A stretch of DNA of 64,000 nt from Leucoraja ocellata (lineage: Eukaryota). Position 1 is the first letter of the stretch, and each line of letters starts with the position of its first letter. The DNA is taken from positions 4,402,001 through 4,466,000 of the forward strand of contig JAWMAR010000070.1 in the NCBI GenBank assembly GCA_036785375.1, in the 5' to 3' direction. This document shows positions 24,305 through 63,910 of this stretch, in pieces. The translations under genes were made by a program, and so were the position numbers. Below the pieces are notes generated by a model, which was given only the letters and a program-made list of their open reading frames with translations, did no database searches and was not told where the DNA came from.

Positions 24305-25903
24305 TAGTTGTATTATAATATGACAATATCTGCTGCGGGCTATCGTTCTGGGTGTGTTACTTTCAGGGGAACAGTGCAGTTTATTCGGGTTGTGTCCGTC
24401 ACTGGCATTGTTGTGTATCACGTGGTATGGGTGTAACACACTGATGTGTCCGCCACTGATGTTAGCTGCGCGCTGGCGACCCTCAGTAAATGATCTTTTG
24501 TTGGGAGCTATTTCCTGTTTACTTGCCCAACTAAAACACTGCAGAGAGGAACCGACGATGCAGCAAAACAATTTAATCCTGTCTTCATTCGCCATTGACC
24601 CATGACTTCTGCAAACACAGCTCAGCAAACAGTGTTACACCGAGCTGCTCGCAAGATGCGGTTCAGAGATACGAATCTACAGACTCTTGTTTCAGCAGCG
24701 CGAGAAAAGTGTCAGCACTGCAGAACAATTCAGTGTAAAGAGAGAAATGACTGTTTGATCATATTAGATTCAAGTACATTGCAAGTCAGCACCCACCGCT
24801 AAACACAACAGTGGCATCGACCCGAAATGTCACCCGTTCTTTCCCTCGAGTGATGCCGCCCTTCCCGCGGAATTGCTCCAGTATTTTGTGTATATCTGTG
24901 GCATCTCAGACCATTTATCTCTCATTATCCGAGAGGCACTTTGGGATGTCCTGCAGTGGGGAAATAATCCAACTCAAGATCATTCCGCCCATTAGACCAT
25001 AAACAAGCTCCATTTGAACGGGCCAGGCAGCATCAATGTGACCACAGAATCTGCAAGTATCTCTGGCTATTCAGCACCCCTCTGATATCCCTGACCTGGG
25101 GGTTTGTGAGTTCACAGCAGTCTCTGGTCTCATGTCCGCGTCTCCCTGCTTACTGTGTGGAGAATATTTATCTGTGTCAGTGGGACATTTTACCCAAAGC
25201 AATCCTTGAGTCTATCCGAACTTTATGGTGTTTACTCTGTTATTGCAGGTCACCATTTTGTATTCGCAAACAGCATCCTTCACAGTTCTTTCATGGGCGG
25301 GGTTACAGTCACACGTCAGACTAAGGAAAGCAACACAATGTATTTGCAGTTTCACACCCCGCGCTTTGCAAGCTGCAACTCCGCCATTTTGTTCTGCACA
25401 AGAATAGACTTTCCTCTAGTTTGGTTAAGTTTAGCTTAGTTACCTGGTATCTACTGATGCCGCCTGTCACGCTGAGTTACCCCAGCAATTTATGTGTATC
25501 TTCAGTTTAAACCAGCATCTGCAGTTCCTTCCTACCTAAAAATTAGTTGCAGATCGGAAATGAAATCTGCAGATGTTGGATGCGCCTCAGTCAGTGTTCG
25601 TGCAGAGAAAAATAAGGCTAATAGTCAGAACAATGCCGTTGCGTAATTTTGGTCTGATGGGATAGCATAGTCTGAAAGATTAATTGAATGTCTTCCCTAA
25701 TCGCCTTTAATGTTTGGCAACAAGAGGAATATCCAGCAGTCTAATCAAAACAAATTAGACAAACCGTTTATTAACAACAACCATTTATTAAGAAGCATTC
25801 TGTTGCATTATTATTCTTTAAGCTAGGAGTCTTCATTGTAATTCGTGGGTCGAGTGGCGAGGTTCTGTGTCGTCGCGTCTCTGCAAAAGACAATGTGAAG
25901 TCA

Positions 25904-26526: not shown

Positions 26527-26617
26527 CTTAGAGCCTCTTGTGAACACCGCGGTTGAGATACTCCAGATCACAAGCAGGAGAAAAAACATCCAGCGCCCCA
26601 CTTCCCATGAGATGTAA
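26527..26617 (-). CDS. Gene C TM exon with membrane Arg (SYISWEVGRWMFFLLLVIWSISTAVFTRGSK)
   Basis: TTTGCCCAG|T acceptor (phase 2), AAG|GTAGGT donor; conserved in three copies. Confidence 0.85.
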
Positions 26618-28254: not shown

Positions 28255-28303
28255 CTTGCAGAGTAATTGGATGGTATCGAATTTTCACAATAACATTCAA
28301 GAC
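28255..28303 (-). CDS. Gene C Cys mini-exon (GLECYCENSIPSNYSA)
   Basis: Paralog of 16058-16106 with canonical sites. Confidence 0.85.
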
Positions 28304-29596: not shown

Positions 29597-29917
29597 CAGT
29601 GCCGTTGATTTGCACCAGGAAACTACAGGGCACGTCACTGCTGGAGATGGACACGTTGACCATTTCACTGGATTTTGATCCATGTTGATTTGAGGCTGTG
29701 CAGAAATATTGATGGTGTTGGTGTTTGAAGGATTGACAATGTAGATCCAGGGCATTGTTGTCTGAGATCTTTGAATCCCCAGATGGGGTCTTTTCATACC
29801 AGCTGTAGTTAATGGGAAGGGATCCCCCGACCGACTCACAGGACACTGTCACTGAGCCCCCGAGACAAGAGACATTGGCTGGTGACAGACACCCAAGCAC
29901 AGGAACAGACACGGGTT
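29597..29917 (-). CDS. Gene C C2b exon
   Basis: ORF 29589-29972, canonical boundaries. Confidence 0.92.
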
Positions 29918-32215: not shown

Positions 32216-32533
32216 CTTCAGATACTTGGAGATATACTTTAAATGTTGGTTCGCCAGGTGTAGTAATTCCACATCTGTACCATCCTGTATCAGCAGAGTG
32301 AAGATCCTCCACGGTCACAGTAAATATTCCTCGTGCCGGGTTATCTGTGATTGACACTGTTCCGTTCAGTCCACGTTTCCCATTTGTTTCCACTACATGT
32401 GTACACTGGCGACTTGTCCCACGGCACCAGTATTTTGTGTGTGAGCGGTACACTGCTGCATAGTGACAATCGATTGTGATCGCTCTTCCCACAACCCCTC
32501 TTACTTCGCTCTCTGCCCACAGTGCACCTGAAA
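32216..32533 (-). CDS. Gene C V4 exon (318 nt)
   Basis: ORF 32196-32546; GAAG|GTAGGT donor. Confidence 0.92.
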
Positions 32534-33750: not shown

Positions 33751-34071
33751 CTGCATTGTTCATTTCTGTCACATAACTGCACGTTCCTGCTCCTTTGAAG
33801 ACTTTCACGTTGAGTATTTCACTGGATTTTGTCCCATGATTATTTGTGGCTCTGCAGTAATATTGACGGTGTTGACCTTCGAGGATTTCACAACTCAGAT
33901 CCAGTTGATTGCCAGACAAGATCGTTGAAACCCAATGCTCGTTCTTTTCAAACCATGTGTAATGGATGGGAAGGGATCCACGGACAGACTCACACGACAC
34001 TGACACTGAGCCTCCGAGATGTGAGGCATTTGCTGGTGACAGATATCTGAGCACAGGAGCAGACACGGGTT
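33751..34071 (-). CDS. Gene C C2a exon
   Basis: CCCACAG|AA acceptor, G|GTGAGT donor; VSVSCESVRGSLPIHYTW..YYC. Confidence 0.92.
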
Positions 34072-35568: not shown

Positions 35569-35889
35569 CGTCAGATATTTGGAGATGTACGATAAATATT
35601 GGACGGTCGCCAGGTGTAGTAATTCCACAGCTGTACCATCCTGTATCTCCAGAGTGAAGATCCTCCACAGTCACAGCAAATATTCTTAGTGCCGGTATAT
35701 CTGTGATTGACACTCTTCCACTCCGTCCGTTTTGCCCATTTGTTTCCACTGAAACTCTACATGGGCGATTCCTCCCACGGCACCAGTATTTTGTGTGTGA
35801 GCGGTACGCTGCTGCATAGTGACAATCGATTGTGATCGCTCTTCCCACAACTCCACTTACATCCCTCTCTGCCCACACTGCATCTGAAA
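35569..35889 (-). CDS. Gene C V3 exon
   Basis: ORF 35549-35878. Confidence 0.92.
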
Positions 35890-36512: not shown

Positions 36513-36833
36513 CGTCAGATACAAGGAGTTCTACGGTAAACATTAGGCGGCCGTTAGATGTTGCAATTCCACATCTGTACCAGCCTGTATCGCCAGAGAG
36601 AAGATCCTCCACAGTCACAGTAAATATTCCTCGTTCCGGGCTATCGGTGATTGACACTCTTCCACTCCTTCCGCGTAGCCCAATTGTTTCCACCATATCT
36701 GTACATTGGCGACTCTGCACACGGCACCAGTATTTTGTGTGTGAGTGATACTCTGCTGCATAGTGACAATCGATTGTAAACACACTTCCCACAACTCCTC
36801 TTACATACGTCTCTCCCCACACTGCACCTGAAA
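36513..36833 (-). CDS. Gene C V2 exon
   Basis: Within ORF 36493-36957, canonical boundaries. Confidence 0.92.
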
Positions 36834-37437: not shown

Positions 37438-37758
37438 CGTCAGATACTTCGAGATGAACGTTAAATATTGGATGGTCGGCAGATGTTGTAATTCCACATC
37501 TGTACCATCCTGTATCTCCATCCTGAAGATCGTCCACAGTCACAGTAAATATTCCTCGTGCCGGGTTATCTGTGATTGACACTCTTCCATTCCGACGGTT
37601 TTGCCCATTTGTTTCCACCAACACTGTACATTGGAGACTCCTCCCACGGCACCAGTATTTTGTGTGTGAGCGGTACTCTGCTGCATAGTAACAATCGATT
37701 GTGATCGCTCTTCCCACAACTCCTCTTACATTCCTCTTTGCCCACACTGCTTCTGAAA
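37438..37758 (-). CDS. Gene C V1 exon
   Basis: ORF 37418-37747. Confidence 0.92.
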
Positions 37759-39313: not shown

Positions 39314-39350
39314 CCGGCAGCGAGGCGATGATAAGAATGGGAATCCACAT
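39314..39350 (-). CDS. Gene C leader exon (MWIPILIIASLP)
   Basis: ATG 39350, G|GTGAGT donor. Confidence 0.92.
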
Positions 39351-53538: not shown

Positions 53539-53650
53539 CGGCACCAGTATTTTGTGTGTGAGTGATACTCTGCTGCATAGTGACAATCGATTGTAAACAC
53601 ACTTCCTACAACTGCTCTTACATACGTCTCTCCCCACACTGCACCTGAAA
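53539..53650 (-). pseudogene. Gene D truncated V2 exon
   Basis: Reads to KYWCR, then joins the CR1 fragment (HFPPF*); 250-bp deletion relative to gene C 36474-36723. Confidence 0.9.
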
Positions 53651-60040: not shown

Positions 60041-61310
60041 CCGAGAAGCGAGAACAATCGCAGGCTCAGCAATCGTTTCGCTGAACACCGCCCCCCAGTC
60101 TGCCTACCCCTACCTGATCTATCTACTGATGCCGCCTGTCACGCTGAGTTACCCCAGCAATTTATGTCTATCTTCAGTTTAAACCAGCATCTGCAGTCCC
60201 TTCCTACCTAAAAATTAGTTGCATATCGGCAATGAAATCTGTACATGTTGGATGTGCTTAGCGCGTCAGTCAGCGTCTGTGCAGAGAAAAATAAGGCTAA
60301 TAGTCAGAACAATGCCGTTGCATAATTTTGGTCTGATGGGATAGCACAATCTGAAAGATTAATTGAATGTCTTCCCTAATCGCCTTTAATGTTTGGCAAC
60401 AAGAGGAATATCCAGCAGTCTAATCAAAACAAATTAGACAAACCGTTTATTGACAACAACCATTTATTAAGAAGCATTCTGTTGCATTATTATTCATTAA
60501 TCTGTGGAAAAAAAATCCAGGAAATTGTATGCATATAATATAGTTTAACATAGGATAAAACTCTGAAGCAGCATAAACCACGCAAAGGTTAAAACAATAG
60601 TTCGAAGCTGACGACAGAAACCTTGGAAGAGGTGGCAAAAATTAAGATGGTGCAAGCTAGGAGTCTTCATTGTAATTCGTGGGTCGAGTGGCGAGGTTCT
60701 GTGTCATCGCGTCTCTGCAAAAGACAATGTGAAGTCATCAGACATACTGACAGTGGGAACCACGCTTTATTTGTCCCGGCCACTCCCAACACATTGCTGT
60801 CTGCAAGATGCTAATCCTCGAATTAGTTAATCCAATACCAACGAACCCACACCGGGCACAGAAATCCACCCTGCACGCGTACAACCTGACAGAACCTCGT
60901 GATATCATCTACACAGAGATTTGGTTTAACTTCAGGATATGAAAACGTGCACGATTTTTGTTTCTATCGATGGACAGGATATATGAAAGCATTAATGGAA
61001 ACCGTTTGGAAACACTCGGCGAAGAGAAGGGATTGCTTTGGGCGAATCCCTTCTGGTAAATCTATGTATTTCATTGCCACAGGAGGCTGTGGAGGCCAAG
61101 TTAATTCACACCGGAGATGCTGCCTGTCCCGCTGAGCTACTCCAGCATTTTTGTATCTGTCCAAATCAATTGATATTTTTATGGCGGATATTTTCATTTT
61201 CTTGATAAATAAGGATGTCAATGGTTACGGGGAGAAGGCAGGTGAATAGGATCGAGAGAGAAGGATAGATCAGCCGTGATTGGGGGCCGATTAGATATGA
61301 TGAGCTGAAC

Positions 61311-63770
61311 GGAGGAAGAGGATTTCTTGGAATGTATGCGGGATAGTTTTCTAAACCAACATGTAGAGGAACCAACGGGAGAGCAGGCTATTCTAGACTG
61401 GGTATTGAGTAATGAGGAAGGGTTAGTTAGAAGTCTTGTTGTGCGTGGCTCCTTGGGCAAGAGTGATCATAATATGGTTGAGTTCTTCATTAGCATGGAA
61501 AGTGACATTGTTAATTCAGAAAAAAGGCTCCTGAACTTAAAGAAAGGTAACTGTGAGAGTATGAGACGTGAATTGGCGAAGATAGACTGGCAATTGATTC
61601 TAAATGGGTTGACGGTGGATATGCAATGGAAGGCATTTAAAGACTGCATGGATGAACTACAACAATTGTTCATCCCAGTTTGGCAAAAAAAATAAATCAG
61701 GGAAGGTAGTGCATCCGTGGATAACCAGGGAAATCAGGGATAGTATCAAAACAAGAGATGAAGCGTACAAATTAGCCAGAAAAAGCAGCCTACCAGAGGA
61801 CTGGGAGAAATTCAGAGACCAGCAGAGGAGGACAAAGGGCTTAATTAGGAAAGGGAAAATAGATTATGAAAGAAAACTGGCAGAGAACATAAAAACTGAC
61901 TGCAAAAGCTTTTATAGATATGTGAAGAGACAAAAGGTTAGTTAAAACGAATGTAGGTCCCTTACAGTCAGAAACAGGTGAATTGATCATTGGGAACAAG
62001 GACATGGCAGACCAATTGAATAACTACTTTGGTTCTGTCTTCTCTAAGGAAGACATAAATAATCTGCCGGAAATCGCAGGGGATCAGGGGTCAAATGAGT
62101 TGGAGGAACTGAGTGAAATCCAGGTTAGCCGGAACGTGGAGTTAGGTAAATTGAATGGATTAAAGGCCGATAAATCCCCAGGGCCAGATAGGCTGCATCC
62201 CAGAGTACTTAAGGAAGTAGCCCCAGAAATAGTGGATGCATTAGTGATAATTTTTCAAAACTCTTTAGATTCTGGTAGTTCTTGAGGATTGGAGGGTAGC
62301 TAATGTAACCCCAATTTTTAAAAAGGGAGGGAGAGATAAAACGGGGAATTACAAACCAGTTAGTCTAACGTCGGTAGTGGGGAAACTGCTAGAATCAGTT
62401 ATTAAAGATGGGATAGCAGCGCATTTGGAAAGTGGTGAAATCATTGGACAAAGTCAGCATGGTTTTACGAAAAGAAAATCATGTCTGACGAATCTTATAG
62501 AATTTTTCGAGGATGTAATTAGTAGAGTGGATAAGGGAGAACCAGTGGATGTGTTATATCTGGACTTTCAGAAGGTTTTCGAAAAGGTCCCACATAAGAG
62601 ATTAGTATACAAACTTAAAGCACACGGTTTGGGGGTTCAGTATTGATGTGGATAGAGAACTGGCAGACAAGAAGCAAAGAGTAGTAGTAAACGGGTCCTT
62701 TTCACAATGGCAGGCAGTGACTAGTGGGGTACCGCAAGGCTCAGTTCTGGGACCCCAGCTATTTACGATATATATTAATGATTTGGAGGAGGGAATTGAA
62801 TGCAACATCTCCAAGTTTGCGGATGACACGAAGCTTGGGGGGCGGGGGGGGGGGGGGGGGGGGGGCAGTGTTATATGTGAGGAGGATGCTAGGAGGCTGC
62901 AAGGTGACTTGGATAGGCTGGGTGAGTGGGCAAATGCATGGCAGATGCAATTTAATGTGGATAAATGTGAAGTTATCCACTTTGATGGCAAAACAGGAAA
63001 GTAGACTTATAATCTGAATGGTGGCCGATTAGGAAAGGGGGAGATGCAACGAGACCTGGGTGTCATGGTACTCCAGTCATTAAACGTAGACATGCAGGTG
63101 CAGCAGGCAGTGAAGAAGGCGAATGGTATGTTAGCATTCATAGCAAAAGGATTTAAGTATAAGAGCAGGAAGGTTCAACTGCAGTTGTACAGGGTCTTGG
63201 TGAGACCACGCCTGGAGTATTGCGTACAGTTTTGGTCTCCTAATCTGAGGAAATATATTCTTGCCATAGAGGGAGCACAGAGAAGGTTCACCAGACTGAT
63301 TCCTGGGATGTCAGGACTTTCATATGAAGAAACACTGGATAGACTCGGTTTGTACTCGCTAGAATTTAGAAGATTGAGGGGGGATCTTATAGAAACTTAC
63401 AACATTCTTAAGGGGTTGGACAGGCTAGATGCAGGAATATTGTTCCCGATGTTCGGGAAGTCCAGAACAAGGGGTCACAGTTTAAGCATAAGGGGGAAAT
63501 ATTTTAGGACTGAGATGAGGAAATCATTTTTCACATAGAGAGTGGTGAATCTCTGGAATTCTCTGCCGCAGAAGGTATTCGAGGCCAGTTCATTGGCTAT
63601 ATTTAAGAGGGAGTTAGATGTGGCCCTTGTGGCTAAAGGGATCAGGGGGTATGGAGAGAAGGCAGGTACAGGATACTGAGTTGGATGATCAGCCATGATC
63701 ATATTGAATGGCGATGCAGGCTCTAAGGGCCGAATGGCCTAGTCCTGCACCTATTTTCTATGTTTCTATG
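61311..63770 (+). mobile_element. 5'-truncated CR1 LINE (~2.46 kb; endonuclease C-terminus, RT, 3' end), frameshifted
   Basis: ORFs 61327-63538 (LGKSDHN, PGPDRLHPRVLKE, FADDTKL); inserted at gctgaa^tggcctaatt, empty in gene C (~26475). Confidence 0.95.
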
Positions 63771-63819
63771 GCCTAATTCTGCTCCTATAATTCATGAACA
63801 TGATGACAGTAAAACCTAC

Positions 63820-63910
63820 CTTAGAGTCTCTTGTGAACACCGCGGTTGAGATACTCCAGATCACAAGCAGGAGAAAGAACATCCAGCGCCCCACTTCCCA
63901 TGAGATGTAA
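63820..63910 (-). CDS. Gene E TM exon with membrane Arg
   Basis: YISWEVGRWMFFLLLVIWSISTAVFTRDSK, canonical sites. Confidence 0.83.

Follow-up and report, generated by a model that had tools for sequence, protein, structure and literature searches.

Transmembrane arginine of MDIR5-type receptor genes in the skate Leucoraja ocellata, a predicted docking residue for FcR-gamma or CD3-zeta

In a 64-kb stretch of Leucoraja ocellata DNA (64,000 nt, hereafter the window), a short minus-strand segment encodes a putative transmembrane (TM) peptide with an Arg near the outer end of the helix. The locus raises the question of what kind of receptor carries this Arg and whether it could dock a signaling adaptor such as FcR-gamma. 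The initial annotation had reported the peptide in three copies, with its coordinates and with the Arg near the outer helix end. All of this was confirmed, and 26527-26617 proved to be an exact exon. The minus strand of the window has three coding copies of the peptide, YISWEVGRWMFFLLLVIWSISTAVF, in genes termed A, B, and C here:

26617-26527, minus strand: Arg-type TM exon of gene A, 91 nt, phase 2 in, phase 0 out, AG/GT ends
44127-44037, minus strand: TM exon copy in gene B, 91 nt, AG/GT ends
63910-63820, minus strand: TM exon copy in gene C, 91 nt, AG/GT ends

In gene A the Arg codon lies at 26595-26593 and the codon of the Glu three residues before it at 26604-26602. The frame of the exon is no chance reading: the link exon upstream ends in phase 2, the tail exon downstream begins in phase 0, and the database protein MDIR5 is translated in the same frame. 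Since the three copies are recent tandem segmental duplicates (segments about 93-97% identical), they are not independent observations. A PDB sequence search with the TM peptide as query gave no matches at E up to 10.

When the exons of gene A were joined by coordinates (39350 to 25833, minus strand), an open frame of 715 aa with canonical splice sites was obtained in the order leader, V-V-V-C2-V-C2, link, TM, and short tail. The exons flanking the TM exon are as follows:

39314..39350, minus strand: leader (coding part)
37438..37758, minus strand: V-set exon 1; best single-domain PDB matches CD300a/CD300c, then CD300f and pIgR D1
36513..36833, minus strand: V-set exon 2
35569..35889, minus strand: V-set exon 3
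33751..34071, minus strand: first C2-type Ig exon
32216..32533, minus strand: V-set exon 4, with YWCR and four Cys
29597..29917, minus strand: membrane-proximal C2-type Ig exon, FCRL5-like
28255..28303, minus strand: link exon, 49 nt, phase 1 in, phase 2 out, with one or two Cys; joined directly to the TM exon in MDIR5
25833..25880, minus strand: tail exon, 48 nt, 15 codons plus stop, no Tyr; resembles the MDIR5 tail

The predicted cytoplasmic tail of gene A comprises ∼19 residues and contains no Tyr. The C2 exons each end in an extra Cys-bearing strand (29597-29640) and the link exon (28255-28303) adds another Cys; these elements possibly form an added disulfide-linked subdomain. A 66-nt open candidate exon (phase 2-2, AG/GT ends) was also seen just upstream of the TM exon, at 26751-26686 and again at 44261-44196. 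It was rejected as a regular in-frame stalk exon: all fetched homologues lack it, and MDIR5 joins link to TM directly. No read covered 26751-26686 at the very low depth available.

The window holds further members of the same family:

56861-42068, minus strand: gene B, second Arg-type gene; leader, V, V, C2, V, C2, link, TM (44127-44037), tail
60667..63910, minus strand: 3' end of gene C; Arg-type TM exon 63910-63820, tail exon 60714-60667, remainder beyond the window
23290-11162, minus strand: gene D, putative inhibitory MDIR3-type paralogue; leader, V, V, V, C2, link, TM, tail exons
2885-266, minus strand: fifth gene of the family, represented by its leader and first V exon; it runs off the left window end

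Gene B has an open 608-aa frame if a truncated V exon at 53650 is skipped, and it is identical to MDIR5 at 401 of 499 positions. The open frame of gene D (590 aa) is identical to MDIR3 at 452 of 587 positions and combines an uncharged TM (13659-13571) with tail exons at 11897-11851 and 11428-11162 that carry three ITIM-like motifs. The four Ig domains of gene D match those of gene A at 95-101 of 106 positions (90-95%), and the link exons match at 6 of 15. By sequence, genes A and D are thus a paired-receptor arrangement, in which an Arg-type gene with a short tail stands against an ITIM-bearing twin with a near-identical ectodomain. Truncated V exons lie on the minus strand at 53650-53520 inside gene B and, isolated between gene D and the next leader, at 5299-5020. 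An intron of gene D also contains a 206-codon open frame (13232-12615, minus strand) that resembles a LINE reverse-transcriptase fragment, with inverted copies near 42.3-42.6 and 61.7-62.4 kb.

Pfam assigned the V exons of gene A to V-set and the remaining Ig exons to Ig_2/Ig_3. The best per-domain PDB matches of the first V exon were CD300a and CD300c (76 bits), followed by CD300f and pIgR D1. All four V exons carry YWCR and Cys at positions 22, 36, 43, and 87; YWCR together with a second disulfide in the V domain is described as the CD300 signature (PMC3031540). The membrane-proximal C2 exon matches FCRL5. The earlier assignment to a CD300/pIgR-type ectodomain therefore stands for the V domains, but the ectodomain as a whole is a mosaic of V and FCRL-like C2 domains. 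A search for homologues yielded 95 proteins, whose names place all of them in sharks, rays, and skates; MDIR2, 3, and 5 of clearnose skate were among them, and the window proteins reached up to 92% identity to Leucoraja and Amblyraja proteins. Gene A shares its layout with MDIR5 of clearnose skate (Raja/Rostroraja eglanteria, ABC86800.1), namely a leader, modules of the V and C2 kinds, a link, a TM of the Arg type, and a short tail; the two are identical at 27 of 30 positions in the TM exon, at 38 of 45 in TM plus tail, and at 78.8% over the MDIR5 length. They differ in that gene A has six domains instead of four and Glu, not Lys, three residues before the Arg. MDIR3 (ABC86797.1), the ITIM type of clearnose skate, has its counterpart in gene D. 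High identity to a named MDIR thus extends over ectodomain, TM, and tail. The genes also agree with the family description in PMC3031540: a modular array of CD300/pIgR-like and FcR-like Ig domains, a large multigene family, and activating as well as inhibitory forms. We assign genes A and B to the MDIR5 type and gene D to the MDIR3 type on these identities; they belong to a published family. A region search with an Arg-type C-terminus found three Rhinoraja proteins only, and the best ESM Atlas hits to the MDIR5 C-terminus scored 0.80, below the useful level.

Conservation of the Arg was examined within the genome and among homologues. A DNA search of the same genome with the TM exon gave 26 matches (26 candidates), all within a 0.7-Mb cluster on one contig (C70, 3.87-4.57 Mb), and the uncharged TM exon gave 10; both counts are lower bounds. 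The Arg is present in 25/25 parsed copies and in the 26th, which has a damaged acceptor, i.e., in 26/26. Because these copies are recent duplicates, invariance within the genome carries little weight. Among individual copies, L024 shows the damaged acceptor and L026 an additional Arg in the inner half of the TM. When segments were selected from the 95 homologues by a motif that did not require Arg, the residue was found in 32/32. After addition of 134 new proteins from a profile search it was found in 38/38 distinct segments from 36 proteins, as judged with a motif derived from the family itself, which cannot see very diverged TMs, and in searches dominated by elasmobranchs. Conservation of the two Trp that flank the Arg equals that of the Arg itself (Trp at +1 being demanded by the 38-segment motif), which would suit an interface anchor as well. 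Conserved Ser/Thr/Cys occur in the inner helix half. By tail type, the 95 homologues comprise 55 ITIM-bearing proteins, 21 with Arg and a short tail, and 19 others; across sharks and rays the Arg TM accompanies short tails and the uncharged TM accompanies ITIM tails.

The residue three positions before the Arg behaves differently. The initial annotation had pointed to a Glu there, which is indeed present in the window copies but is a local variant: the 26 genomic copies have Glu in 16 and Lys in 10, and the 38 segments have Lys in 16, Asp in 7, Asn in 4, Ser in 3, Thr in 2, Ala in 2, and Gln, Met, Glu, and Gly in one each. A role of this Glu as functional partner of the Arg was rejected for want of conservation. 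The residue at -3 would lie at the surface of the membrane and probably takes no part in the site.

To estimate the depth of the Arg, windows were scored with the Kyte-Doolittle scale and with an approximate insertion energy scale. In gene A, 19- and 21-residue windows placed the Arg inside, at position 2-3, but 17-residue windows left it outside in 2 of 4 scorings. Of the homologous segments, 30 had flanks long enough to be scored. The insertion score with 21-residue windows put the Arg at position 3 in all 30; Kyte-Doolittle gave positions 3-10 with 21-residue windows and left the Arg outside in 5/30 with 19-residue windows. The Arg is thus found at approximately TM position 3, near the outer helix end, an estimate that is sensitive to window length. 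The first cytoplasmic Lys/Arg follows the Arg by 19 residues in 27 of the 30 segments, and the first basic residue follows the Asp by 16 residues in 6/6 fish FcR-gamma chains. With 21-residue windows the gene A Arg is at position 3 and the Asp of skate FcR-gamma at position 6. In PMC1440944, the FcalphaRI Arg is placed at position 3, the Fc-gamma Asp at 6, and the DAP12 Asp at 9, and an N-terminal Arg is described for Fc-gamma partners with a basic TM residue. The Arg/Asp offset of 3 equals the FcalphaRI/Fc-gamma geometry and therefore fits FcR-gamma/zeta, not DAP12. The AlphaFold2 model of MDIR5 has one continuous helix at residues 456-485, Arg464 included, with pLDDT <50 up to residue 458; a model of the TM exon alone gave one helix through the Arg, which says little.

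Candidate adaptors are encoded in the same genome. An FcR-gamma TM exon with Cys and Asp was found, the Asp being at matching depth, and a CD3-zeta-like exon was also detected. In the assembly, the CD3-zeta-like TM exon (L028, contig C175, about 2976731-2976830) shows a frame change near the Cys-Asp motif, which is either an assembly error or a broken gene. A search of the genome for the DAP10 family gave no matches, a result that does not show absence.

How does this TM compare with those of known receptors? The initial annotation regarded an Arg-type FcR-gamma TM as a trait of the leukocyte receptor complex (LRC). In LRC receptors, the FcR-gamma-docking Arg lies within an NxxR motif, and the FCRL and SLAM families of Xenopus are described as using it too, with support from transfection (PMC2413239, PMC6557307, PMC4536121), so that the trait is not confined to the LRC. 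The NxxR type includes LILRA2, PIR-A, NKp46, GPVI, OSCAR, FcalphaRI, and TARM1 as well as Xenopus XFL/FCRL and SLAM-like proteins; its TM is described as opening with a DYT consensus and as having one or more acidic residues at its inner end (PMC6557307). Unlike these, the TM of gene A has no invariant Asn and no inner-end acidic residue, and two conserved Trp surround its Arg. The Asn three residues before the Arg is found in 0/26 genomic copies and in 4/38 homologous segments (Asp in 7/38); the helix starts with S-Y-I, which shares only the Tyr with DYT, and has no Asp/Glu before the first basic residue. Gene A further differs from NxxR-type receptors in having the tail on its own exon, as in MDIRs but unlike Xenopus TM1, and CD300/pIgR-type V domains in the ectodomain. 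The MDIR TM at best works like an NxxR TM, and we do not class it as NxxR.

The CD300/CMRF35 proteins (CD300a/c, LMIR7, LMIR8) share with gene A a V domain with YWCR and a second disulfide and the paired activating/inhibitory design, and some members use FcR-gamma. They have a single V domain and, in the members compared, a TM Lys or Glu, whereas gene A has four V plus two C2 domains and an outer Arg. The initial annotation had inferred a union of CD300-like V domains with FcR-gamma-style adaptor usage. Such a union is already in print: mouse LMIR8 is reported to couple to FcR-gamma in spite of a TM Lys, and mouse LMIR7 also couples to it (PMC5974347); human CD300c is reported to couple through Glu, and its binding to FcR-gamma persists after loss of the TM Glu (PMC12447643). 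Tandem V domains are common to gene A and to pIgR and fish pIgR-like proteins (PDB pIgR, E 1e-55 summed over domains). pIgR itself is defined by an all-V ectodomain and a long cytoplasmic tail for transcytosis. Gene A, on the other hand, contains C2 domains and a tail of ∼19 residues, and its alignment to pIgR D1 has two gaps where the loop after the first Cys is shorter.

We consider it probable that MDIR5-type genes couple to FcR-gamma/CD3-zeta through the Arg, as predicted from the sequence features above. Gene A is likely the activating half of a skate paired-receptor family. Its invariant Arg, ∼3 residues inside the outer leaflet, would dock an FcR-gamma (or CD3-zeta) dimer by pairing with the adaptor Asp pair; ligand binding by the V/C2 ectodomain would then be signaled via the adaptor ITAM, and the MDIR3-type twin would inhibit. 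Arg invariance, the Tyr-free tail, the ITIM twin in the window, the FcR-gamma TM exon in the genome, and the matching Arg/Asp depth count for such coupling, and Xenopus FCRL proteins with an N-terminal Arg TM are reported to associate with FcR-gamma in transfection (PMC2413239). The position of the Arg at the helix edge, the low model confidence of the helix start, and the mostly missing Asn of NxxR count against it. Adaptor-independent surface expression, formerly named together with missing co-precipitation as a refutation of coupling, is insufficient alone, since FcalphaR, OSCAR, and XFL1.7 are described as reaching the surface without FcR-gamma (PMC2413239). Our literature search returned no experiment on any MDIR and nothing on an Arg TM in fish pIgR-like proteins. 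The abstract of the original MDIR paper reportedly gives MDIR1 a charged TM residue and MDIR4 and MDIR5 no typical activating or inhibitory motifs. If so, the Arg of MDIR5 as a docking residue is a small new interpretation. The same search, of partial coverage and not establishing absence from print, found PMC3031540, the available part of which leaves the MDIR TM undiscussed.

Mammalian docking rules can fail in fish, since the basic TM residue (Lys) of catfish IpLITR 2.6b is reported to be dispensable for FcR-gamma binding (PMC4810170). An activating receptor in which the Arg is not the docking residue, or which uses another adaptor (DAP12, DAP10), has therefore to be considered, as in catfish LITR or CD300c. 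The persistence of CD300c binding without the TM Glu (PMC12447643) and the coupling of LMIR8 despite its TM Lys (PMC5974347) are in line with such a route, for which the conserved Ser/Thr/Cys of the inner helix half could make a polar interface. We nevertheless regard it as unlikely, given that the Arg is the sole invariant charged residue and is found at a depth matching FcR-gamma; the DAP12 Asp, placed at position 9, is too deep (PMC1440944). Somewhat less probable still is that W-x-x-x-R-W is a mere interfacial anchor or trafficking signal in a non-signaling or decoy protein competing for ligand with its ITIM twin. Helices commonly meet the membrane interface with an Arg flanked by two Trp, the Arg falls outside the shortest windows, and the Asn of NxxR is missing. 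But the ITIM paralogues, with their uncharged TMs, do without an anchor of this kind, and Arg and short tail co-occur across sharks and rays. Moreover, only 17-18 residues separate the Arg from the cytoplasmic basic residue, vs. 23 in the TM of the twin; unless the Arg itself lies within the membrane, this span is short for a helix of the plasma membrane.

There is finally the possibility that the exon is mainly read in another frame, or that the copies are silent duplicates. Skipping of the 49-nt link exon (29917-29597 joined to 26617-26527) brings a stop into the TM exon, and database models P0016, P0033, and P0107 end in this link-skipped frame. Since the stop lies only 41 nt before the last junction, the resulting secreted form could escape decay. 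Four RNA runs were examined for transcripts: nine reads, from two of the runs (the other two gave none), covered the TM exon only. Three of the nine stop at the predicted donor 26527 and continue in letters that match the tail exon at 24/30 positions (by eye); five others resemble a more distant paralogue type. As none of the nine is at least 99% alike to a window copy, what the reads document is the splicing of paralogues, or of genes from a related species, rather than that of gene A, and the copies could by this measure be silent. Reads over 14 kb revealed no exon joints, the signal being swamped by intronic repeats. Against both versions, MDIR5 and other Arg-type database proteins use the TM frame, genes A and B have uninterrupted frames and canonical splice sites, and it is in the TM frame that the residue pattern is conserved among elasmobranchs, which makes this explanation highly improbable.

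The preferred reading, coupling through the Arg, can be set in a wider range. The W-x-x-x-R-W core recurs in a second, diverged Arg-type TM, that of pIgR-like proteins of rays and skates and, with a weak score, of one sturgeon pIgR-like protein (KAK1138222.1; HMM E 0.017 among 134 proteins). The exon of this second TM gave nine further genome matches, seven at C70 4.79-4.90 Mb and others including C1141 (L029-L031); this neighboring subcluster is related to a little-skate pIgR-like protein, and one inspected exon has a phase-2 acceptor too. FcR-gamma (P0096/P0239) and MDIR-like records (P0014, P0001, and others) are located on sequences of equal size (33,952,483 in Leucoraja and 40,557,729 in Amblyraja), which suggests that the two kinds of gene share a chromosome in little skate and thorny skate. 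In the Leucoraja ocellata assembly they are on different contigs. The linkage is reminiscent of the human 1q FcR/FCRL/PIGR region. It is tempting, though rather doubtful as a joint proposal, to view W-x-x-x-R-W as a distinct FcR-gamma-docking helix that would be older than the shark/bony-fish split and a sister or forerunner of the tetrapod NxxR. The MDIR5-type proteins, with pIgR/CD300-type V and FCRL-type C2 domains and with genes linked to FCER1G in two skates, would then be the cartilaginous-fish equivalents of activating Fc receptors, a relic of the ancestor of the FcR/FCRL/pIgR region.

The gain from these results is incremental, because the family, its paired design, and CD300/FcR-gamma coupling were already known. 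If coupling through the Arg is true, the larger part of the skate cluster (26 Arg-type vs. 10 uncharged TM exons matched) would be activating via FcR-gamma or CD3-zeta, and MDIR5 would gain a mechanism. Arg-based docking of FcR-gamma would then date to the base of the jawed vertebrates, with a TM motif other than NxxR. MDIR5-type genes would also be candidate immunoglobulin or lipid receptors in sharks and skates.
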